Of a stretch of DNA of 8,610 nucleotides, positions 1 to 8,610 are shown one piece after another; position 1 is the first letter of the stretch, and every line of letters begins with the position of its first letter. This stretch comes from a virus (taxonomy: Duplodnaviria > Heunggongvirae > Uroviricota > Caudoviricetes). A model generated the notes under the pieces. The model searched no databases, had not been told where the DNA came from, and saw nothing but the letters and a program-made list of their open reading frames with translations. Position numbers and translations under genes: made by a program. Where the stretch lies: positions 1 to 8,610 of IMG/VR virus record IMGVR_UViG_2778261030_000017. One strand, written 5' to 3'.

Positions 1-137
1 ACCTGGCGCTGCGCAGGGCGAAAAGTGATGTTCAGAAGTGGGAGCGAGTCTGCGCCGCGCTGCGGGAGCTGAACAAGCACCGGGATATTGTTCGACAGAT
101 TACTGATTCTTCCCGCCGTGTTGTATCGGAAAAGTGA
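1..137 (+). CDS. 3' end of an upstream gene (partial, hypothetical phage protein)
   Basis: Open frame entering from the window edge (codons phased from position 3) ending at TGA 135-137, translating ...LALRRAKSDVQKWERVCAALRELNKHRDIVRQITDSSRRVVSEK. Backbone-like GC content. The stop sits 15 nt before the next start. No family recognised. Confidence 0.4.
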   Translation, partial: LALRRAKSDVQKWERVCAALRELNKHRDIVRQITDSSRRVVSEK

Positions 138-152
138 TTGCCGGAGGCGCTT

Positions 153-566
153 ATGGCAAAAGTATTTACACAGGAAGAGCGGGAAAAAATTAAAGGGCAG
201 GTTGTTGAGCTAGTACGCCGGAGTGGGCGCGAGACGTTACGGCAACTGGAAGCCAAGACAGGTGCGACAAGATATCTGATGAGCGTTCTTGCCAGAGAGC
301 TGGTTGCCAGTGGCGATGTATACAACTCTGGTTACGGGTTATTCCCATCTGAACAGGCTCGTAAGGACTGGCAAAACGCCCGCAAAAAACTATCGAGGGC
401 AAAACTGAAGAAACCGGTTGTGGTTGATCCTGACCTTATCTGGTCATTACCAGACGGAGAAATACGCCGCTATGACAGGCAATTGAACATAATTTGTAGT
501 GAGTGCCGTAACAGTGAAGTGATGCAGCGAGTTTTGATATTTTACACAGGAGTAATGATGGAATAG
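153..566 (+). CDS. hypothetical phage protein (about 137 aa)
   Basis: ORF-track frame 138..566; I place the start at ATG 153 because GGAGG at 143-147 sits 5 nt upstream (138 is TTG). Translation MAKVFTQEEREKIKGQVVELVRRSGRETLRQLEAKTGATRY... No family recognised with confidence. Confidence 0.55.
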   Translation: MAKVFTQEEREKIKGQVVELVRRSGRETLRQLEAKTGATRYLMSVLARELVASGDVYNSGYGLFPSEQARKDWQNARKKLSRAKLKKPVVVDPDLIWSLPDGEIRRYDRQLNIICSECRNSEVMQRVLIFYTGVMME

Positions 567-797
567 TGAAAATAACATGAAACCTTTGGATTCTGGTGTT
601 TCAGTGGATGGGAAAAGAGCAGATACATAGAAAATGAATAGCAATAATTCACAGTCTGGATGTTGTTTGTATGCTTATAAAATGATCCTAGTATGCATTG
701 CCGGAGTTGAATCAGCTCCAATGAAGAAACTGAGAGGAGTATTTAGAAGATAGCTAAATGGATGTAATTATTAGTATCTAAAAAATAGTATTTTTGA

Positions 798-863
798 AAT
801 GGGTCTAAGAACACAACAATGTACAAATGAGAAGTTATCTTTTAATATGTTCAAAGACCCATT
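798..863. repeat. long imperfect inverted repeat in the intergenic region downstream of the esterase gene
   Basis: AATGGGTCT (798-806) is the reverse complement of AGACCCATT (855-863). A second 5-bp segment pairs as well (809-813 with 848-852), giving a roughly 14-bp interrupted stem around a 34-nt loop. No T-run follows on either strand. Confidence 0.3.
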
Positions 864-917
864 AGGATTGATATCAGTTATGTTAGCTAGATTGATAAAG
901 TGATTACATATTTTCTG

Positions 918-1691
918 TTATATGCTGAAATGAATAATGCTATTCCAGAGTGCAGCAGAGAAAGTCTCCTGATGATTGAGCTCTGGAAATTGTACAATAG
1001 AAAAATTACTGTATTTTTCTGTCAAAATATTTCTCAAAACAGATTCCGCTTTGATGGCTTCAGGATATAAAGATGCGGAGTAATCAAGGCTAAGATTTCC
1101 GTTAAGCAAGCATATACTTTTAGTGTGCTTTGATTCTGATATATCATCTTTAATTATCTTGATGATTCTTTCATTCTGCCATAGAAGTGATGGTGCAGAT
1201 ATATAATAATAGTTAAAGCATGAATTATTTTTTAAGCAATCAAGCACAAAAATAGCACCTAGCGAGTGCCCCCATATACCGATTCTGGAACTGTTCGGAG
1301 CAATAGTACTAACCCATGGCATGATCTGAGTTAGTAATAATTCTCGGAAAGACTGGCTTCCTCCACCAGTAAAGTAGATCCATGCTGGTTTAGAGTTATC
1401 AACAATAGCATTTTCACCATCAGGAGTATAATCGTAAGCACGGCGATGAATGCTAAGGTTATTCCAAGATTCATAACCAAGTGTAACTAACACTGGTGGA
1501 TTGGGTAGTGCATCAATAACAGGCAGAATATCAGAAATGTAATTGTTGGCACTATTCCCATCAAGTATATAAAGAGTTGCATTATTTTTTTTAATGTTTT
1601 TTGGAGTAAAAATACATATTTTATATTTGGTGTCATGGTTAATTGAGTTAAATATGCGTGTTTGACAATGAATGTCCATATGTTTAGTCAT
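918..1691 (-). CDS. alpha/beta-hydrolase fold esterase (putative esterase family, serine hydrolase), 257 aa
   Basis: Minus-strand ORF with a GxSxG nucleophile motif (IGIWGHSLGAIF), an upstream YILDGN segment and a C-terminal His (FPELNHQ), consistent with a Ser-Asp-His triad. GGAG lies 5 nt upstream of the ATG on the minus strand (complement of 1697-1700). Very AT-rich relative to flanking DNA. No signal peptide evident. Confidence 0.75.
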   Translation of the reverse strand: MTKHMDIHCQTRIFNSINHDTKYKICIFTPKNIKKNNATLYILDGNSANNYISDILPVIDALPNPPVLVTLGYESWNNLSIHRRAYDYTPDGENAIVDNSKPAWIYFTGGGSQSFRELLLTQIMPWVSTIAPNSSRIGIWGHSLGAIFVLDCLKNNSCFNYYYISAPSLLWQNERIIKIIKDDISESKHTKSICLLNGNLSLDYSASLYPEAIKAESVLRNILTEKYSNFSIVQFPELNHQETFSAALWNSIIHFSI

Positions 1692-1854
1692 GCGTTCTCC
1701 CCATGAGCATTAAAGGATGCTTAAGATATGCTATGTCACTGATAAAAAATTTGTTGTGTGTGTTTAGTTATTTTATCTACCTCCATTATGATTTAAGACT
1801 GATATATGTTATCAGCAAAGGTACATCGTTATTATTTTACCTGTCAATACATTT

Positions 1855-1873
1855 GATATTGATTATCGTTTAC
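1855..1873. promoter_or_regulatory. Fur-box-like sequence in the esterase upstream region
   Basis: GATATTGATTATCGTTTAC matches the 19-bp Fur consensus GATAATGATAATCATTATC at 14 of 19 positions by my hand alignment. It lies about 165 bp upstream of the esterase start on the minus strand. The background is AT-rich, so a chance match is plausible. Confidence 0.2.
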
Positions 1874-2169
1874 ATCGCTTGCTTAGGAAATTGAAGGCAG
1901 GTAACTATCATGTCAATGAACTAACCCACAGTCTAACGTACTTCTTTCCCCAATCACCAACAACCAAATTCCTGTTATCACCACTGGGATTTTGGCGCAA
2001 CTTCATGGTGCAGAGGTAAATAGCATCAAGCAAAATCTCTTTTTCCGTTGTTGTCCTTATGGGACGTCTGTCTTTCTGACCGATTTCATATTGGCGAGGT
2101 AATGGGAAGTTAAGTAGAATAGCTGCGGGTGCTTGAGGCTATCTGCCTCGGGCATGAACACCAACGGCA

Positions 2170-2250
2170 GATAGAGAAAAGCCCCAGTTAACATTACGCG
2201 TCCTGCAAGACGCTTAACATTAATCTGAGGCTCAATCCATGCTGAACACA
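2170..2250 (-). ncRNA. sok: predicted Sok-type antisense RNA region of the hok/mok locus (boundaries approximate)
   Basis: By analogy with hok/sok loci, the antisense RNA is made from the opposite strand across the mok start (ATG 2239). A candidate minus-strand promoter is TTGCCT, 17-nt spacer, TAACCT (complement of about 2254-2282). A minus-strand hairpin GCGTC-N6-GACGC lies further downstream. Exact ends are not determinable from sequence. Confidence 0.3.
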
Positions 2251-2451
2251 TGTAGGTTAGCCTCTTACGTGCCGAAAGGCAAGGAGAAGCAGGCTATGAA
2301 GCAGCAAAAGGCGATGTTAATCGCCCTGATCGTCATCTGTTTAACCGTCATAGTGACGGCACTGGTAACGAGGAAAGACCTCTGCGAGGTGCGAATCCGA
2401 ACCGGTCAGACGGAGGTCGCTGTCTTCGTAGACTACGAATCTGAGAAGTAA
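2239..2451 (+). CDS. mok: Mok (modulator of killing) reading frame, in-frame N-terminal extension of Hok
   Basis: ATG 2239 opens MLNTCRLASYVPKGKEKQA, which runs in frame into the Hok start. The MLNTCR beginning matches my recollection of MokC-type proteins. Confidence 0.55.
   Translation: MLNTCRLASYVPKGKEKQAMKQQKAMLIALIVICLTVIVTALVTRKDLCEVRIRTGQTEVAVFVDYESEK
2296..2451 (+). CDS. hok: Hok/Gef family type I toxin (51 aa membrane peptide), HokD/RelF-like
   Basis: Hand translation gives MKQQKAMLIALIVICLTVIVTALVTRKDLCEVRIRTGQTEVAVFVDYESEK: one transmembrane helix plus the conserved Hok C-terminal motif. A G-rich interrupted hairpin follows at about 2458-2485, as at hok mRNA 3' ends. Confidence 0.9.
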   Translation: MKQQKAMLIALIVICLTVIVTALVTRKDLCEVRIRTGQTEVAVFVDYESEK

Positions 2452-2570
2452 GAGACCAGGCGGGGGAGTAATCTCCCGCCACCTCTGATGTGTCAGGCAT
2501 CCTCAACGCACCCGCGCTTTACCATACTGAAAATGCTGTTTGAATGTTCATCTCTGAAAGAGGACTATGA

Positions 2571-2915
2571 ATGAAAAAGGTATTGATTGCAGCACTTATT
2601 TCCGGTGTGTCTTTTGGCGCTTTTGCACAGCAGGGTGGTTTCCAGGGGCCAGAAGCAGAGCGTTCAACAGTAGCGCAGGCAAAAGAACTGAAGGATGATG
2701 CATGGGTTATCCTTGAAGGGAGCATCGTTAAAAAAGTGGGTGATGAACGTTATGAGTTTCGTGACAATAGCGGGACAATTGTCACGGATATTGATGACAG
2801 CGTATGGGCCGGGCAGAATGTTTCTCCGAAAGACAAAGTAAGAATTGAGGGTGAAATTGATAAAGACCTGAGCAGTGTTGAAGTTGATGTAAAGGCACTG
2901 AAATTATTAAAGTAA
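2571..2915 (+). CDS. secreted OB-fold protein, YgiW/YdeI (BOF, DUF388) family, 114 aa
   Basis: N-terminal signal peptide MKKVLIAALISGVSFGAFA followed by QQGGFQGP. The mature part follows the YgiW-type pattern (KDDAWVILEGSIVKKVGDERYEFRDNSGTIVTDIDDSVW...KDKVRIEGEIDKD). RBS AGAGGA lies 6 nt upstream of the ATG. Confidence 0.85.
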   Translation: MKKVLIAALISGVSFGAFAQQGGFQGPEAERSTVAQAKELKDDAWVILEGSIVKKVGDERYEFRDNSGTIVTDIDDSVWAGQNVSPKDKVRIEGEIDKDLSSVEVDVKALKLLK

Positions 2916-2933
2916 CCGCCCCTGCTTGTTAAG

Positions 2934-2960
2934 CCCGTCTTACTGACGGGTTTTCTGTTT
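2934..2960 (+). terminator. rho-independent terminator after the YgiW-like gene
   Basis: CCCGTC (2934-2939), loop TTACT, GACGGG (2945-2950), then TTTTCTGTTT. Confidence 0.6.
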
Positions 2961-2987
2961 GTACATTCCGGCGTATTGCCTTACAAT
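2959..2987 (+). promoter_or_regulatory. candidate sigma70 promoter for the operon running from the 3037 ORF through DUF968, rusA and Q
   Basis: TTGTAC (2959-2964), 17-nt spacer, TACAAT (2982-2987), about 50 nt upstream of ATG 3037. Found by eye only. Confidence 0.3.
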
Positions 2988-3036
2988 TCGCGCAGTCAGC
3001 CTGAACAACTGACACCTGCTGTCACCGGAGAATCCG

Positions 3037-3309
3037 ATGACACAACACATAAAATCCCACAATTCTGAAGCCGACCCGGAAATTAAGCAGGGGAGGCGTT
3101 TTCGTGCGCCTCAGTATGGCTGGTTTCACTATCTGTTCTGTACGATCGATGAGGCAGATATGCTTCAAGAGGCGTATCTGCGTCGCGGTGTCCGTGTGGA
3201 GCGGAGTCTGAACGCTGATCGTCTGACCTGGACCGTTTCTGTATATCTTCCTGTTCGTGCACATCTGCCACGGACACATGCCTGCTACCGTCAGCGCGTC
3301 TGGAGGTAA
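3037..3309 (+). CDS. hypothetical protein (90 aa), translationally coupled to the DUF968 gene
   Basis: GGAG at 3027-3030 sits 6 nt before ATG 3037. The stop TAA 3307-3309 is followed by the GTG start of the next gene at 3311. Family not recognised. Confidence 0.5.
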   Translation: MTQHIKSHNSEADPEIKQGRRFRAPQYGWFHYLFCTIDEADMLQEAYLRRGVRVERSLNADRLTWTVSVYLPVRAHLPRTHACYRQRVWR

Positions 3310-3310
3310 T

Positions 3311-4360
3311 GTGCGGGTATTACTTCGACCTGTTCTGGTTCCGGAACTCGGGCTGGTGGTCCTTAAGCCCGGTCGTGAATCATTGCCAGTTTTTCATCGC
3401 GGCAGGGTGCTGGTGGAGCCGGAACCGAAAAACATGCGGGCGCTGCCATCTGGAGCGGTTCCTACTGTTCGCCAGCCGCTGGCGGAAGATAAATCACTGC
3501 TGCCATTTTTCAGCGATGAGCGGGTGATTCGTGCAGCTGGCGGCGCTGGTGCACTGTCTGACTGGTTATTACGTCACGTGAAATCCTGCCAGTGGCCACA
3601 CGGCGATTATCATCACAGCGAAACCGTTATTCACAGTTACGGTGCTGGCGCAATGGTGTTGTGCTGGCACTGCGACAACCAGCTGCGCGACCAGACCTCC
3701 GAATCACTTGAGCAACTTACTCAACAAAATCTGACAGCCTGGATGATTGACGTCATACGCCATGTAATGAATGGCACGCAGGAGCGGGAATTATCGCTGG
3801 CTGAATTATCCTGGTGGGCGGTCCGCAATCAGGTGGCGGACGCGCTACCGGAAGCGGTATTACGTCGTTCGCTGGGGTTGCGTGCGGAAAAAATCCGCTC
3901 AATGTACCGTGAAAGCGACATCATACCGGGAGAACAGACCGCCACCAGCATACTGAAGCAGCGCACAAAAAATATTGCGCTACCGCCTCACACCCACCAG
4001 CAACAGAACCCACCACAGGAAAAGACGGTGGTCAGCATTGCCGTTGATCCGGAGTCTCCGGAATCCTTCATGAAACGACCTAAACGTCGCCGCTGGGTAA
4101 ATGAGAAATACACACGCTGGGTAAAGACACAGCCGTGTGCGTGTTGTGGTAAGCCAGCGGACGATCCTCATCATCTGATTGGTCATGGTCAGGGTGGAAT
4201 GGGAACAAAATCCCACGATATTTTCACGCTACCGCTGTGTCGGGAGCATCACAACGAGCTTCATGCGGATCCGCTGGCGTTCGAAGAAAAGCATGGTTCC
4301 CAGGTTGATTTAATTTTTCGTTTTCTTGATCACGCCTTTGCAACCGGCGTGCTCGGGTAA
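3311..4360 (+). CDS. DUF968 family phage protein (YdfU-like) with a C-terminal Cys/His HNH-like zinc motif, 349 aa
   Basis: Start reassigned to GTG 3311 (RBS GGAGG 3302-3306, 4-nt spacing), giving (M)RVLLRPVLVPELGLVVLKPGRE... and a 349-aa product that fits my recollection of YdfU-like proteins. C-terminal motif CACCGKPADDPHHLIGHG...CREHHNELH. The ORF-track start at 3257 has no RBS. Confidence 0.85.
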   Translation: MRVLLRPVLVPELGLVVLKPGRESLPVFHRGRVLVEPEPKNMRALPSGAVPTVRQPLAEDKSLLPFFSDERVIRAAGGAGALSDWLLRHVKSCQWPHGDYHHSETVIHSYGAGAMVLCWHCDNQLRDQTSESLEQLTQQNLTAWMIDVIRHVMNGTQERELSLAELSWWAVRNQVADALPEAVLRRSLGLRAEKIRSMYRESDIIPGEQTATSILKQRTKNIALPPHTHQQQNPPQEKTVVSIAVDPESPESFMKRPKRRRWVNEKYTRWVKTQPCACCGKPADDPHHLIGHGQGGMGTKSHDIFTLPLCREHHNELHADPLAFEEKHGSQVDLIFRFLDHAFATGVLG

Positions 4361-4372
4361 AAGAGGTTACTG

Positions 4373-4744
4373 ATGCGTATAGAGTTTGTTTTGCTTTACC
4401 CGCCGACGGTGAACACCTACTGGCGACGTCGTGGCAGCACATATTTTGTATCAAAAGCCGGTGAGCGTTATCGCCGGGCTGTGGCGCTTATTGTTCGCCA
4501 GCAGCGGCTGAAATTAAGCCTGTCCGGAAGGCTGGCGATAAAGGTGATTGCAGAGCCACCGGATAAGCGCCGCCGTGACCTGGACAACATTCTGAAAGCA
4601 CCGCTGGATGCGCTGACGCATGCGGAAGTGCTCATTGATGACGAGCAGTTTGATGAAATCAATATTGTGCGCGGTCAGCCTGTGCCAGGTGGACGGCTGG
4701 GCGTGAAGATTTACGAAATCAGAGGTGGTAACGATGGCGCGTGA
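4373..4744 (+). CDS. rusA: RusA family Holliday-junction resolvase
   Basis: 123 aa with the RusA signature [39 protein letters not shown] lies 6 nt upstream of the ATG. Position between the DUF968 gene and Q is the usual nin-region place. Confidence 0.9.
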
Positions 4745-5105
4745 TATCCAGATGGTTCTTGAGCGATGGGGGGCATGGGCAGCAAATAATCATGAAGATG
4801 TAACATGGCCCTCGATAGCTGCTGGTTTTAAAGGATTAATCCCGACTAAAGTGAAATCACGTCCTAAGTGTTCTGATGATGACGCCATGATAATTTGTGG
4901 TTGTATGGCACGATTAAACAAGAATAATCAGTATTTGCACGATTTGTTGGTGGATTATTACGTAGGTGGAATGACATTTATGGCTCTTGCACGTAAGCAT
5001 AGATGTTCTGATGGGCTTATTGGTAAAAGGCTTTATAAAGCGGAAGGTATTATTGAAGGAATGCTTATGGCTCTGAATGTCCGGTTAGATATGGATATGC
5101 GGTAG
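4734..5105 (+). CDS. late-gene antiterminator Q (phage antitermination protein Q family, QuuD-like)
   Basis: [25 protein letters not shown]...[11 protein letters not shown]...[27 protein letters not shown] matches my recollection of QuuD/82-type Q proteins. Start ATG 4734 follows GAGGTGG and overlaps the rusA stop by 11 nt. The ORF-track start at 4725 is a GTG inside that RBS. Confidence 0.85.
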
Positions 5106-5196
5106 GGATATATAGTGATGAGGGTTATGTTTTCTGTGTTTATAATTAACATGTTTATTTTTTGATGGTCATGTATTGTGGAAGGTAGATAAAATG

Positions 5197-5225
5197 TTGC
5201 CTGGTGAATTGAAAATATTGATAAT
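5197..5225 (+). promoter_or_regulatory. candidate sigma70 promoter for the CPBP gene
   Basis: TTGCCT (5197-5202), 17-nt spacer, GATAAT (5220-5225), about 30 nt upstream of ATG 5257. A separate perfect TATAAT at 5141-5146 may belong to the phage late promoter, but I cannot assign it. Confidence 0.3.
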
Positions 5226-5256
5226 CAATCTTCATCATTAAATAAAAGGAGTGCTT

Positions 5257-6075
5257 ATGTGGATTGTGTTAGTACTGTCACTGTCAACTCTCAGTTGGCA
5301 TAAGGTAGTGGCTTTTTCATTGTTGACGGTGTCTGTTGTCCTGGCTGTGCTTAATGATATTATTGATTGGTCGGTGTTATTTTTTGTTGCTACAATCGTT
5401 TTTTTTATTATTTTGAAGTTCAACTGGAAATATAACGCCTGGGCTAAATCTATATATGAAGTTGGCATAGTTTTATCAGCCATAGCATTATCTTTCCATC
5501 TATGGCCAGGGTTTCACAATCCTGTAGTGCTAAATTCTGTTACTGTTGGCCCTCAAAGTACTCCCTATACAATGTATTTTAATTTTGATAAAGCGCTGGT
5601 GCCATTTTTGTTAGTCCTGTGTACATCTTCTTTGTTTAAAAAAGAAGTAAAATCAGAAGTGTCTTTGTGGAAGTGGGGGGCTCTGTCGCTCTCTGTTCCT
5701 CTTATCCTGTTTTTGGCTGTTTTTTTTGGTGGATTAAAGCCAGAGATTCATTTTCCTGAGTGGTTGCCAGAGTTTATATTGGCTAATTTGTTTTTTGTGT
5801 CTCTGGCAGAGGAATCATTATTTAGAGGGTATATTCAATCACGGCTATCAGAAGTAACGTCTCCATTGGTTGCATTAATTGTGGCGGCTTTGTTGTTTGG
5901 TTTTTATCACTATTCAGGTGGTGCTTTACTTGTATTATTTGCCACGTTATCTGGTGTTGTGTATGGATTGTCATGGATGTGGAGTGGGCGTTTGTGGGTT
6001 GCCACCCTTTTCCATTTTGGTTTGAATCTGTGTCACTTGTTATTCTTTACCTATCCATTTTTAAAACATAATTGA
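5257..6075 (+). CDS. CPBP family intramembrane metalloprotease (CAAX protease / Abi domain), polytopic membrane protein, 272 aa
   Basis: All three CPBP motifs are present in order: EExxxR (AEESLFRGY), FxxxH (FGFYHYS), HxxxN (HFGLNLCH). Multiple hydrophobic helices. Start placed at ATG 5257 because AAGGAG 5246-5251 sits 5 nt upstream (the ORF-track GTG at 5251 lies inside the RBS). Strongly AT-rich compared with the Q gene immediately upstream. Confidence 0.85.
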   Translation: MWIVLVLSLSTLSWHKVVAFSLLTVSVVLAVLNDIIDWSVLFFVATIVFFIILKFNWKYNAWAKSIYEVGIVLSAIALSFHLWPGFHNPVVLNSVTVGPQSTPYTMYFNFDKALVPFLLVLCTSSLFKKEVKSEVSLWKWGALSLSVPLILFLAVFFGGLKPEIHFPEWLPEFILANLFFVSLAEESLFRGYIQSRLSEVTSPLVALIVAALLFGFYHYSGGALLVLFATLSGVVYGLSWMWSGRLWVATLFHFGLNLCHLLFFTYPFLKHN

Positions 6076-6216
6076 TTTTTTCTATGGTTTTAAATTTATA
6101 AGACTGAAAAATAGCAGGACGTGACATTTGCATGAAAAATATGCACGGCAAAGCATTTACGTACGTAAAAAATCAGGTATGCTGTTAAGAGTGGTTATTT
6201 CGCCGCATAGCTTGAC

Positions 6217-6240
6217 CCCGCCTCTGAGCGGGTTTTTTGT
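6217..6240 (+). terminator. rho-independent terminator downstream of the CPBP gene
   Basis: CCCGC (6217-6221), loop CTCTGA, GCGGG (6228-6232), then TTTTTTGT. Confidence 0.6.
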
Positions 6241-6361
6241 GCCCGCAAAGTAGCGCAGTGCGTTAAATGTGCTGGTAGTTATTAATACAGGTCTTTCAGC
6301 TTGCTGGCTTTTTCGACAAGAGTTATTGGTGTGTCACGTTAACCGGAAAGGGTAAAAAGAC

Positions 6362-6601
6362 ATGCTGAAACAGCAGGATATGACAGAAACCGCCAGAGTT
6401 GTGTTTGATGAATTAAGCGTCACCGAACCGGCGACGGTCGGGGAGATTGCGCAGAATACGTACCTTTCACGCGAGCGCTGCCAGTTAATACTGACCCAGC
6501 TGGTTATGCGGGTCTGGCAGACTATCAGTTCGGTTGTTACAGACGCCTTCAGTCCTGAAGGCTTTTTTATTTGTGGTAAATGGGCGGCTGGTGGGTGTTA
6601 G
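6362..6601 (+). CDS. questionable small ORF (79 aa, possible small HTH protein); may instead be non-coding late-leader RNA
   Basis: The ORF has backbone-like GC and a segment that could be a helix-turn-helix (TVGEIAQNTYLSRERCQLILTQL). Its last 57 nt contain a strong intrinsic terminator (6545-6570) upstream of the stop, and the RBS is weak. Coding status doubtful. Confidence 0.3.
   Translation: MLKQQDMTETARVVFDELSVTEPATVGEIAQNTYLSRERCQLILTQLVMRVWQTISSVVTDAFSPEGFFICGKWAAGGC
6545..6570 (+). terminator. strong rho-independent terminator (candidate tR'-like late-leader terminator)
   Basis: GCCTTCA (6545-6551), loop GTCC, TGAAGGC (6556-6562), then TTTTTTATTT. Perfect 7-bp stem. Confidence 0.6.
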
Positions 6602-6629
6602 CGGCACCTGTCAGTCCTTTGCTTATGTG

Positions 6630-6660
6630 TTGATGATAATTTACCTTTTGGGGCTATAAT
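6630..6660 (+). promoter_or_regulatory. candidate promoter for the AraC-family gene
   Basis: TTGATG (6630-6635), 19-nt spacer (longer than optimal), perfect TATAAT (6655-6660), about 35 nt upstream of ATG 6696. Confidence 0.3.
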
Positions 6661-6695
6661 TGAACTAACCAATTGCTAATGAAAGTAAAATTATA

Positions 6696-7409
6696 ATGGT
6701 TGTTGTCTGTTCAGTTATCATGGTTTGCTCCCCAATTAATATTTTTCTTGAAAAGGATACGTTGTCACTTAAGCCCGGCTCAGTCGTTCTGGCCACCAAA
6801 TGCATCAGGGCGCTTTTCCTTATGCATTATGGCAAAGTTAAAATTTTCGATATAAACCATTCCATAGTAAGTCAATATCTGGAAATTCAGCATAAGCTGA
6901 CAAGAACTCATCTGACTGACGTTCCGCTTTATCTGTCACTGGAACCCAACAACCCTGCGTTGGCTGAGGCTTTAATTACCAGCCAGAGATTTTCCGGAGA
7001 TACCACGGATATGTTTCTTATGATGGCATGCCTGTCGCTGTTTGAATCAGATGAACGGATATTATTATTTTTAAGTGGATGTTTATCCAGTATAAGTGCC
7101 AAAGTCAGGGCGATAATTCAGACAGATATATCAGCAAGCTGGACGCTTGGTGCGATTGCGTTACGCCTGCATATGAGTGAGAGTTTGTTAAAGATAAAAC
7201 TGAAAAATGAAGGGCACATGTTCAGTCGCTTGTTGCTGGAAGAGCGGATGCGTGTTGCTGTCAATATGTTATGTTCCCGGCATGGATATGGACAGGCTGT
7301 AGCAGAAAAATGCGGTTATTCAAGCTGGTCCTACTTTATTTCTGTATTTCACCGCTATTATGGCTTCCCGCCAGACAGATATGTATCCAGGCAAGGGCTT
7401 GATTATTGA
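6696..7409 (+). CDS. AraC/XylS family transcriptional regulator, small GadX/YdeO/AppY-like type (resembles prophage-encoded PatE/Psr-type regulators)
   Basis: 237 aa. The C-terminal about 100 aa show the AraC double-HTH pattern (WTLGAIALRLHMSESLLKIKLKNEGHMFSRLLLEERMRVAVNMLCSRHGYGQAVAEKCGYSSWSYFISVFHRYYGFPPDRY). The N-terminus MVVVCSVIMVC resembles AppY-type proteins as I recall them. AT-rich island; weak RBS, start could alternatively be ATG 6720. Confidence 0.85.
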   Translation: MVVVCSVIMVCSPINIFLEKDTLSLKPGSVVLATKCIRALFLMHYGKVKIFDINHSIVSQYLEIQHKLTRTHLTDVPLYLSLEPNNPALAEALITSQRFSGDTTDMFLMMACLSLFESDERILLFLSGCLSSISAKVRAIIQTDISASWTLGAIALRLHMSESLLKIKLKNEGHMFSRLLLEERMRVAVNMLCSRHGYGQAVAEKCGYSSWSYFISVFHRYYGFPPDRYVSRQGLDY

Positions 7410-7437
7410 TTTTCATCTGATTATTATTTTTTGACCC

Positions 7438-7513
7438 GGCCCTTTAGCTCAGTGGTGAGAGCGAGCGACTCATAATCGCCAGGTCGCTGGTTCAAATCCA
7501 GCAAGGGCCACCA
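7438..7513 (+). tRNA. ileZ: tRNA with CAT anticodon, Ile2 (lysidine-type, ileX/ileZ-like) rather than Met
   Basis: 76-nt cloverleaf folded by hand: acceptor GGCCCTT/AAGGGCC, D-arm GCTC-AGTGGTGA-GAGC, anticodon loop CTCATAA, T-arm GCTGG-TTCAAAT-CCAGC, discriminator A, encoded CCA. Closely resembles E. coli ileX as I recall it. Confidence 0.85.
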
Positions 7514-7520
7514 TCACATA

Positions 7521-7597
7521 CCGCCATTAGCTCATCAGGAAAGAGCGCCAGCTTTCGAAGCTGGTTGCGCGGAGTTCGGGTCCCCGAAGGCGGTCCA
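7521..7597 (+). tRNA. argN: tRNA-Arg (anticodon TCG), divergent and possibly a weak or pseudo-tRNA
   Basis: 77-nt fold with anticodon stem CCAGC/GCTGG and loop TTTCGAA (anticodon TCG), and a canonical D-arm. The acceptor stem has one A-A mismatch, the T-stem one A-C mismatch, and the T-loop is TTCGGGT instead of TTCRANT. Gene symbol assigned by position in the Stx-phage trio only. Confidence 0.55.
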
Positions 7598-7610
7598 TTA
7601 TCTGTATCCT

Positions 7611-7687
7611 GCGTTGTTAGCTCAGCCGGACAGAGCAATTGCCTTCTAAGCAATCGGTCACTGGTTCGAATCCAGTACAACGCGCCA
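7611..7687 (+). tRNA. argO: tRNA-Arg (anticodon TCT, reads AGA)
   Basis: 77-nt cloverleaf: acceptor GCGTTGT/ACAACGC, D-arm GCTC-AGCCGGACA-GAGC, anticodon stem ATTGC/GCAAT with loop CTTCTAA, T-arm ACTGG-TTCGAAT-CCAGT, discriminator G, CCA. Confidence 0.85.
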
Positions 7688-7701
7688 CACTTATTTTCCC
7701 T

Positions 7702-7727
7702 GGCTCGCTTTTGCGGGCCTTTTTTTT
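7702..7727 (+). terminator. rho-independent terminator directly after the tRNA cluster
   Basis: GGCTCGC (7702-7708), loop TTTT, GCGGGCC (7713-7719; one U-G wobble), then T8 (7720-7727). Confidence 0.6.
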
Positions 7728-7923
7728 AAATGTCTCACAATTCAGGCGGTTGACTGTTGTCTGGTTTGCGGGGAGTTTGTTAAAAGAAACTGGCATGGTG
7801 AATCCCCCTGTGCGGAGGGGCAATCAGCGAGTAGGTATATGGGATAATCGCGGATTCAGGTGCTGGTACTGAATTCACCGGGAGGCACCCGGCACCATGC
7901 AATGGCACATAGCGCCACTCTCC

Positions 7924-7950
7924 AGCCCCTCTCCGGAGGGGCTTTCTTAT
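7924..7950 (+). terminator. terminator-like hairpin (+ strand)
   Basis: AGCCCCTC (7924-7931), loop TCCG, GAGGGGCT (7936-7943), perfect 8-bp stem, followed by TTCTTAT. Confidence 0.45.
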
Positions 7951-7954
7951 GGAC

Positions 7955-7983
7955 AAAAAAAGCCCGCGCAGGGAGACGCGGGC
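7955..7983 (-). terminator. terminator-like hairpin oriented for the minus strand
   Basis: GCCCGCG (7962-7968), loop CAGGGAGA, CGCGGGC (7977-7983), preceded on the + strand by A7 (7955-7961), which is a T7 run after the hairpin on the minus strand. No convincing minus-strand gene upstream of it in this window. Confidence 0.35.
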
Positions 7984-8051
7984 GGCAAGGAATAAACAAC
8001 AAAACGTGAAGTAATATTTCAGCTGGCGAATAATATCCGACAGTAATCACT

Positions 8052-8074
8052 CTGCGCAATAGCGCGGCCTTTTT
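8052..8074 (+). terminator. terminator-like hairpin upstream of the NanS-p-like gene
   Basis: CTGCGC (8052-8057), loop AATA, GCGCGG (8062-8067; one U-G wobble), then CC and TTTTT (8070-8074). Confidence 0.35.
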
Positions 8075-8176
8075 CGTATTGCGGGCTGTTGTCTCTCTTC
8101 TGCCATTGTCCTGTAACTTCCGGACTTCAGCCCGCTCCTCATTTTACTCACAATATTATCCCGGCCGGGAGGATTC

Positions 8177-8610
8177 ATGGCATTTAAACACTATGATGTT
8201 GTCAGGGCGGCGTCGCCGTCAGACCTTGCGGAAAAGCTGACACACAAACTGAAAGAGGGCTGGCAGCCATACGGCGGACCGGTTGCCATTACGCCGTACA
8301 CACTGATGCAGGCGGTGGCTATTGAAGGAGATCCACAGGTCGGCCCTTCATCTAAGCCGGACTGGTTCTACGTGGTTGTGCTTGCCGGACAGTCCAACGG
8401 CATGGCCTACGGTGAAGGGCTTCCGTTACCGGATTCTTACGATGCTCCGGATCCGCGCATTAAACAGCTGGCGCGCCGCAGCACGGTAACTCCGGGTGGA
8501 GAGAGTTGTACGTATAACGACATCATTCCGGCTGACCACTGCCTGCATGATGTGCAGGATATGAGTACGCTGAATCATCCGAAGGCAGACCTGAGCAAAG
8601 GGCAGTACGG
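8177..8610 (+). CDS. nanS-p: 5' part of a NanS-p-like 9-O-acetyl sialate esterase (DUF1737 N-domain followed by an SGNH/SASA hydrolase domain); continues beyond the window
   Basis: RBS GGGAGG (8167-8172) 4 nt before ATG 8177. Hand translation MAFKHYDVVRAASPSDLAEKLTHKLKEGWQPYGGPVAITPYTLMQAVAIEG..., then FYVVVLAGQSNGMAYGEG carrying the SGNH-type GQSN catalytic-serine block. This matches my memory of the gene found just downstream of stx in Stx phages. Confidence 0.8.
   Translation, partial: MAFKHYDVVRAASPSDLAEKLTHKLKEGWQPYGGPVAITPYTLMQAVAIEGDPQVGPSSKPDWFYVVVLAGQSNGMAYGEGLPLPDSYDAPDPRIKQLARRSTVTPGGESCTYNDIIPADHCLHDVQDMSTLNHPKADLSKGQY

Follow-up and report, generated by a model that had tools for sequence, protein, structure and literature searches.

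The DNA analysed here (hereafter the window) is a stretch of 8,610 nucleotides, corresponding to positions 1 to 8,610 of the viral record IMGVR_UViG_2778261030_000017 (Caudoviricetes). In its second half, the gene for the antiterminator Q (4725-5105, PF06530) is followed by a gene for a CAAX/CPBP protease (5251-6075), a TrmB pseudogene and an AraC-type gene (6696-7409), which corresponds to ECs1087 of E. coli O157:H7 Sakai and has been named psrA (PMC13502914). Compared with the gene order of Stx phages, these are three extra genes between Q and the tRNAs. The tRNA genes themselves, all called by ARAGORN on the plus strand, comprise a tRNA with the anticodon CAT (7438-7513), annotated as tRNA-Ile/ileZ in relatives, tRNA-Arg(TCG) (7521-7597) and tRNA-Arg(TCT) (7611-7687), with Rfam tRNA matches in the cluster as well; by the RefSeq and Sakai annotations the trio is of the ileZ-argN-argO type. 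Just upstream of them, a scan revealed a plus-strand promoter-like site (TTGATT-17-TATTAT, 7399-7427), which corresponds to the "pT, putative tRNA promoter" of phage 933W. The last gene, also on the plus strand (8177-8610), leaves the window at its end, so that only the 5' part of a NanS-p-type sialate O-acetylesterase is encoded. The fragment matches the Pfam DUF1737 N-terminus (1.6e-16) and is identical to Sakai ECs1088 in 144 of 144 amino acids. A near-identical full-length relative comes from strain Z570, where the DNA of the locus shows 98.6% identity to the window; it contains DUF1737, SASA and DUF6645, and it is 54% identical to the esterase of 933W. The assignment of this gene to the NanS-p homologues, made initially from the letters of the window, is thus supported by DUF1737 within the window and by the SASA domain that the full-length relative exhibits beyond the window end. 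Taken as a whole, the locus shows the late synteny of Stx phages, i.e. Q, ileZ-argN-argO and, ahead of the genes for lysis, a NanS-p-type esterase.

The end of the last tRNA (7687) and the ATG of the esterase gene (8177-8179) delimit a spacer of 489 nt (7688-8176), and both the tRNA calls and the position of the ATG agree with the gap length given in the initial annotation. The spacer is 100% identical to that between argO1 and ECs1088 in prophage Sp4 of Sakai, where the flanking genes match too (psrA/ECs1087, ileZ1-argN1-argO1 and ECs1088), and the window position equals the Sakai coordinate (NC_002695.2) minus 1171981. A partial record of phage Nil3 is likewise 100% identical over the 91% of the spacer length that it covers. 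Among 5426 complete E. coli genomes, 2865 match some part of the spacer and 978 hold at least 80% of it, while the rest of the window shows 98.6% identity over 91% of its length to the best complete-genome matches, which are other O157:H7 and O111 strains. The spacer is therefore an already known sequence, common in E. coli prophages. Related loci were compared by means of MAFFT alignments.

A consensus scan recovered all four terminator-like hairpins that had been pointed out in the spacer before, at the same positions. The 2-kb stretch that was scanned contains six terminator-like sites, four of them in the spacer, versus 2.1 +/- 1.5 in shuffled sequences. According to z-scores calculated against dinucleotide shuffles (n=200), three of the hairpins fold far better than expected: hairpin 1 (7702-7727, plus strand; stem 7702-7719 in the scan, followed by T8) with -13.8 kcal/mol and z = -3.3, hairpin 2 (7924-7950, plus strand; stem 7924-7943) with -18 kcal/mol and z = -3.3, and the minus-strand hairpin (7955-7983; stem 7983-7962 followed by T7) with -16.7 kcal/mol and z = -4.0; none of the 200 shuffles folded as well in any of these cases. 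Hairpin 3 (8052-8074, plus strand; stem 8052-8067) is weaker, with z = -1.7 and 13 of 200 shuffles as good. It is the best-conserved element of the spacer across prophages, retained in Sp4, Sp5/933W, Sp9, Sp10, Sp11, Sp15 and Sp17. Some 100 nt separate it from the esterase gene downstream, and it has been assigned to no known sRNA.

Alignment of the spacer with the regions flanking the toxin genes of Stx phages revealed where the two kinds of sequence part and meet again. After argO, 933W possesses the same terminator as the window, ggctcgcttttgcgggcctttttt, i.e. the sequence of hairpin 1, annotated there as [quoted passage not shown], and hairpin 1 is the intrinsic terminator that closes the tRNA unit. 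Past the T-run of this terminator, 933W continues with the stx2 promoter region, stx2A and stx2B, and about 40 nt past the stx2B stop the homology with the window resumes at TCACAATTCAG (window position ~7735). From there to the start of the esterase gene the window is colinear with the DNA downstream of stx2B in 933W and Sp5, and of stx1B in the Stx1 phage and Sp15. Since the flanks align on both sides, the stx2AB cassette of Stx2 phages (~1.33 kb; 933W locus L004, ~2410-3740) is cleanly missing to within a few bases, at 7727-7735, and nothing is inserted at this point. In terms of the stx flanks, hairpin 1 belongs to the upstream side and the remaining three hairpins to the downstream side. 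Neither stxA nor stxB, which define a Stx-converting phage, is found in the interval that runs from the tRNAs (or PR'/tR') to the sRNA dyad and nanS-p described here. The proposal of an stx-negative locus with a Stx-phage-like architecture is upheld by this alignment.

Downstream of the stx point, the plus strand carries an sRNA gene of the STnc100 family (7764-7954). The Rfam model RF02076 was matched with 138 bits (gathering score 47, E = 3e-31) over model positions 1-206 of 206, and hairpin 2 forms the 3' stem in the model alignment. For seven STnc100 copies, RNAalifold predicted 33 base pairs, five of which are retained through changes on both sides, and the common structure comprises a long-range stem around three inner hairpins, plus the terminator. 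The RNA is thus placed in the family both by the full-length model score and by the conserved structure, and hairpin 2 is its intrinsic terminator. STnc100 matches have been also found directly after stx2B in 933W and Sp5 (208 bits) and after stx1B in the Stx1 phage and Sp15 (177 bits), and the family is present in the Sakai prophages Sp4, Sp9, Sp10, Sp11, Sp15 and Sp17.

The sRNAs of this region have been described in EHEC. Tree et al. 2014 (PMC4104026) reported "convergent sRNAs" between a moron CDS and a conserved ORF downstream of PR' in the lambdoid prophages Sp3, 4, 5, 9, 10, 11, 15 and 17, and listed for Sp4 three Hfq-CRAC peaks, EcOnc05 (plus strand), EcOnc08 and EcOnc21 (both minus strand), in their Table S2. 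A review (PMC7873438) regards EcOnc42, EcOnc21 and EcOnc08 as confirmed via Northern blotting and Hfq-CRAC and the dyads as present in at least eight Sakai prophages, and in later papers stx is described as "bookended" by the dyad sRNAs. Assuming zero offset between the Sakai genome versions at Sp4, as judged solely by where the probes lie with respect to the peaks (the offset is about +135 at Sp5), the peaks map in the window to 7825-7933 on the plus strand for EcOnc05, and on the minus strand to 7957-8029 for EcOnc08 and 8035-8120 for EcOnc21. The RNA evidence, both CRAC and Northern, comes from Sakai, where the sequence is identical.

The STnc100-family sRNA of the window corresponds to EcOnc05 of Sp4, and the published EcOnc05 Northern probe is the exact reverse complement of 7822-7856. 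On the Northern blot it measures ~222 nt (Tree et al. 2014, PMC4104026), a size that would place its 5' end closer to ~7730 than to the start of the Rfam match at 7764. A search for the promoter of EcOnc05 yielded a conserved TTGAC (7750-7754) with no -10 element at the proper spacing; a TTAAAT at 7726-7731 would fit the 222-nt size, and it occurs in an altered form in the Stx1 and Stx2 phages. Later papers treat EcOnc27, the Sp5 homologue of EcOnc05, as the same RNA as sRNA103 of EDL933 and the predicted STnc100.

On the opposite strand, the terminator starts one base past the end of the STnc100 match (7954), and the two RNAs face each other. The Northern probe common to EcOnc08, EcOnc21 and EcOnc42 is the exact plus-strand sequence of 8029-8063, and it therefore detects a minus-strand RNA; both EcOnc08 and EcOnc21 are listed as having EcOnc42 of Sp15 for a homologue (PMC4104026, Table S2). 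The minus-strand hairpin is an intrinsic terminator, the 3' end of the Hfq-bound EcOnc08/21, and in PhiR49_2 its stem is maintained via compensatory changes. The EcOnc21 peak represents an upstream Hfq-binding region of the longer minus-strand RNA and includes an A/G-rich stretch, AGAAGAGAGACAACAG. An unannotated antisense RNA had been suspected at this terminator from the sequence; the published CRAC peaks and the matching Northern probe demonstrate that the suspected RNA is real but not new, having been published in 2014 as EcOnc08/EcOnc21 (EcOnc42 in Sp15).

A promoter for a shorter minus-strand RNA is predicted at 8030-8059, with the -35 element TTGCGC (8059-8054), an 18-nt spacer and the -10 element TATTAT (8035-8030). 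In an alignment of the minus-strand module from seven phages (Sp4 type, PhiR5_1, PhiR5_2, phi296, Stx2_14040, PhiR49_2 and the Stx1 phage) neither hexamer varies, and the sequence between them changes while its length is constant. The conserved promoter and terminator would define a discrete RNA of ~69 nt (8024 to 7956) in the same place as the CRAC peak of EcOnc08; the equivalent ends in Sp15 would be at about 2924267 (5') and 2924335 (3') on the plus strand. We consider it possible, although somewhat doubtful, that the minus strand yields such a primary sRNA besides the published RNA of ~271 nt, the size of EcOnc21 on the Northern blot (Tree et al. 2014, PMC4104026). The probe common to EcOnc08/21/42 is located upstream of the predicted start at 8024, so the 271-nt band must represent a longer, overlapping transcript. 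For a 271-nt RNA that ends at 7956, no plausible sigma-70 -10 element was found near 8226-8260, nor any candidate containing TA at 8228-8260; the only promoter-like site for a longer RNA, 8183-8155, would give ~193 nt, and a possible extended -10, TGtTTAAAT (8190-8182), would give ~220 nt. If the longer RNA starts inside the esterase gene, it would be also antisense to the ribosome-binding site of the esterase.

The 5' arm and the loop of hairpin 3 also contain the -35 of the predicted minus-strand promoter, and hairpin 3 probably plays a dual role, terminating plus-strand transcription before the esterase gene and providing the -35 region for the minus-strand promoter. A similar arrangement can be recognized in 933W, where TAAAAT stands before the RACE-mapped 5' end of AsxR and TTGCGC, within hairpin 3, another 18 nt upstream of it; judging from these elements, the AsxR promoter of 933W appears to have the same position and the same -35 as the minus-strand promoter of the window.

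AsxR (RF02703), AgvB (RF02702) and EcOnc03 form a group of "anti-sRNAs", whose primary transcripts are 51-60 nt long and have their own promoter; the promoter in the window predicts ~69 nt. In Sp5 and 933W, AsxR starts on the opposite strand 1-2 bases past the STnc100 match, and its slot is taken by AgvB in Sp10 and Sp17 and by the AgvB-like EcOnc03 in Sp9. The minus-strand RNA of the window occupies the position characteristic of this group, i.e. it lies in the interval from the moron site to the esterase gene, where it faces and abuts the STnc100 sRNA, whereas the ~42-nt conserved 3' region of the group, with the terminator GCCCGAACCCAYTCGGGC, is absent here. The Rfam models of AsxR and AgvB were not matched over the whole window (E <= 1) or over the spacer with lax filters (E <= 10), and no Rfam family matched the minus-strand RNA over the spacer even at E <= 10; the sub-threshold minus-strand matches, to anti-hemB, OmrA-B and SgrS, lie on the terminator hairpin or run into it. 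Membership of the minus-strand RNA in the AsxR/AgvB/EcOnc03 group was consequently rejected, given the lack of a Rfam match and an alignment in which both the terminator and the body differ. If real, the ~69-nt RNA would be a fourth occupant of the "anti-sRNA" slot, unrelated in sequence to AsxR, AgvB and EcOnc03. Its 5' part is U/G-rich, CGUUUUGUUGUUUAUU, and is more like the G/U-rich seed of GcvB than like a target of GcvB. When pairing was tested with AgvB, AsxR and EcOnc03, only AgvB gave a marginal result, a duplex of -10.8 kcal/mol with its CACAACAA region, which was equalled by 2.1% of shuffles; pairing between the ~69-nt RNA and AgvB is a speculation. An RNA of this kind, provided that it exists, could act on GcvB-type targets or cross-talk with the AgvB of a sister prophage.

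Several other readings of the spacer have to be weighed against these data. It might encode one or more small proteins, with the hairpins being incidental. The initial annotation regarded the spacer as free of ORFs, which holds in the sense that there is no credible ORF, but mechanically defined ORFs of 43-77 amino acids do overlap it, and hypothetical proteins are annotated at the spacer in the records of the Stx1 phage, phi296 and PhiR49_2. On the other hand, neither of the two longest overlapping ORFs matches Pfam, and the alignment of homologous spacers contains indels of 19, 14, 8, 5 and 4 nt, none of them a multiple of three, which together make protein coding unlikely; besides, conservation tracks the RNA stems and the promoter hexamers, not the reading frames. 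We consider this reading extremely improbable. Hardly more credible is the view that the hairpins are mere terminators or checkpoints for Q read-through in an empty cargo site, the minus-strand hairpin being an orphan. It is true that the three plus-strand hairpins resemble intrinsic terminators, that hairpin 1 is annotated in 933W as a terminator upstream of stx, and that hairpin 3 has been assigned to no known sRNA. However, a full-length STnc100 match has hairpin 2 as its 3' stem, both strands of an identical sequence have published Hfq-CRAC peaks and Northern bands, and a conserved promoter stands upstream of the minus-strand hairpin. What survives of the earlier suggestion of "Q-readthrough checkpoints" is that the three plus-strand hairpins are terminator-like; hairpin 2 and the minus-strand hairpin end facing genes of Hfq-bound sRNAs, and Q read-through can apply to the plus-strand terminators only, on the grounds of what is generally known of lambdoid Q antitermination.

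A different question is whether the site is a scar, left by precise deletion of stx from an ancestral Stx phage, or belongs to a lineage that never carried the toxin genes here. The former possibility is in line with flanks that on both sides agree with those of Stx2 phages to a precision of a few bases, and with the mosaic sRNA copy of the Stx1 phage, whose 3' half is 98.7% identical to the window and which shows that Stx and non-Stx prophages have recombined here. Nevertheless, there is no stx remnant or repeat at 7727-7735, and the spacer is uninterrupted at a coverage of at least 80% in the 978 of 5426 complete E. coli genomes mentioned above. Moreover, different cargo is found at or near the same slot elsewhere, e.g. 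a TerB-like gene in Sp10 and Sp11, which fits a general insertion hot spot. We regard a scar as unlikely, though less so than the two readings discussed above.

We find it very probable that the spacer is the stx-free moron-insertion site of a Sp4-type lambdoid prophage, with facing Hfq-binding sRNAs and four self-contained transcription signals. Hairpin 1 would terminate the phage tRNA unit; the plus-strand, Hfq-binding STnc100-family sRNA EcOnc05 (7764-7954) would end at hairpin 2; the facing, minus-strand, Hfq-binding EcOnc08/EcOnc21 would end at the hairpin 7955-7983; and the conserved plus-strand hairpin 3 would precede the esterase gene and carry the -35 of the minus-strand promoter. In a lysogen, the tRNA unit, from the promoter-like site at 7399-7427 to the terminator at 7702-7727, and the two sRNA genes would be separate small transcription units. 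Both sRNAs, made from their own promoters, would act in trans via Hfq on host or prophage transcripts, by analogy with their siblings in the same slot, AsxR, which acts on FnrS, and AgvB, which acts on GcvB. In lambdoid phages, RNA polymerase modified by Q reads through terminators. Upon induction, such a polymerase, starting downstream of Q (4725-5105), would transcribe past hairpins 1-3 as far as the genes for the esterase and for lysis. As to the minus strand, the TTGCGC-18-TATTAT promoter may give rise to the short ~69-nt RNA, alongside the longer RNA already published.

The finding adds little to what is known, as the module, a facing dyad of Hfq-binding sRNAs at the moron site, which in Stx phages is home to the toxin genes, has been present in the EHEC literature since 2014 and was re-identified here from raw sequence. 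In genome annotations the spacer is still either empty or given small ORFs of doubtful standing. The small addition made by the present analysis is the conserved promoter, which predicts a ~69-nt RNA in the slot that is occupied by AsxR in Stx2 phages.

Among the systems known to date, several can be compared with the module. Zhu, Shabalina and Storz (2026, bioRxiv 10.64898/2026.05.13.724894) reported that PasD1 and PasD2 of EPEC E2348/69 are related to STnc100 in structure. According to the same work, PasD2 adjoins a sialic-acid esterase gene in a lambdoid prophage, and the PasD RNAs are too diverged from STnc100 for detection by BLAST; their likeness to the window is taken from this published description only. 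The pairs EcOnc06/AgvB of Sp10 and Sp17 and EcOnc28/EcOnc03 of Sp9 exhibit the same arrangement, a facing sRNA pair upstream of a NanS-p-type gene, but their minus-strand partners have the ~42-nt conserved 3' region that the partner in the window does not have.

The two types of Stx phages can be compared as well. Sp5 and 933W, with EcOnc27 (sRNA103, STnc100) and AsxR, display the same order of tRNAs, terminator, STnc100 sRNA, facing sRNA and hairpin 3, and after hairpin 3 the order is also the same, with the esterase 5' UTR and the NanS-p gene. They differ in carrying stx2AB at the equivalent of window positions 7727-7735, and in their minus-strand partner, the 53-nt AsxR, whose conserved 3' part and terminator are absent from the window. 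In Sp15 and the Stx1-converting phage, with EcOnc42, the DNA corresponding to window positions 7871-8176 is 98.7% identical, and the minus-strand module and the probe are the same; Sp15, on the other hand, carries stx1AB, lacks the upstream tRNAs, and has an STnc100 copy with a 5' half of the type found in Stx2 phages. The closest system is the dyad of EcOnc05 and EcOnc08-EcOnc21 in Sp4 of Sakai, which has the same neighbours (psrA, ileZ-argN-argO and ECs1088) and zero differences in the spacer, and whose published probes and peaks fall on the features of the window.

Cargo in the window is inserted also upstream of the tRNAs, since three additional genes lie on the plus strand between Q and the tRNAs (region 4725-7409). 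The gene for the antiterminator Q itself (4725-5105, plus strand) is followed by a gene for a CAAX/CPBP protease (5251-6075), a frameshifted TrmB-like gene and psrA/ECs1087 (6696-7409), which encodes an AraC-type regulator, all in the same orientation, and the interval between Q and the tRNAs also contains additional terminator-like hairpins at 6217-6232 and 6545-6562. In the prophage early region, positions 2127-2301 (plus strand) gave a full-length match to the Rfam family sok, scoring 113.5 bits where the gathering threshold is 59. Because this match overlaps a gene that is annotated as the toxin gene hokD in a genome nearly identical to the window, the segment is identified as a hok/sok type I toxin-antitoxin locus.

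On the minus strand of the spacer, the Hfq-bound RNA known as EcOnc08/21 in Sakai prophage Sp4 and EcOnc42 in Sp15 has a size of ~271 nt (PMC4104026). If this RNA ends at 7956, it should start ~50 nt into the esterase coding sequence (8177-8260, minus strand), and it would then be antisense to the ribosome-binding site of the esterase; a promoter fitting the ~271-nt RNA was sought and none was found. A shorter RNA of 69 nt is also predicted, and its 5' part (7990-8010, minus strand; CGUUUUGUUGUUUAUU) can pair with the region CACAACAA of AgvB, an occupant of the same slot in other prophages. The predicted duplex has -10.8 kcal/mol, compared to -5.5 +/- 2.2 for shuffles, 2.1% of which equal it, and pairing between the two RNAs is weakly indicated and speculative.

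The minus-strand sRNA partner is exchangeable. In some Stx2a phages the module of the Sp4/Sp15 type is found 3' of stx2B, where it replaces AsxR (as in phage Stx2_14040, locus L016, 401-870), and the partner therefore exchanges independently of the toxin type. The facing STnc100 sRNA gene is mosaic in the Stx1 phage and Sp15 (L002, 3875-4084): its 5' half resembles the copy of Stx2 phages, and the remainder, beginning at the equivalent of window position 7871, shares 98.7% identity with the Sp4 type. This pattern indicates a recombination joint within the sRNA gene. The toxin slot itself also accepts other genes, as Sakai Sp10 (L010, 428-859) and Sp11 (L013, 1551-1982) carry a TerB/TciA-like gene that follows the tRNAs and precedes the sRNA dyad, where stx2 sits in Stx2 phages, which is a further case of alternative cargo in the same slot.
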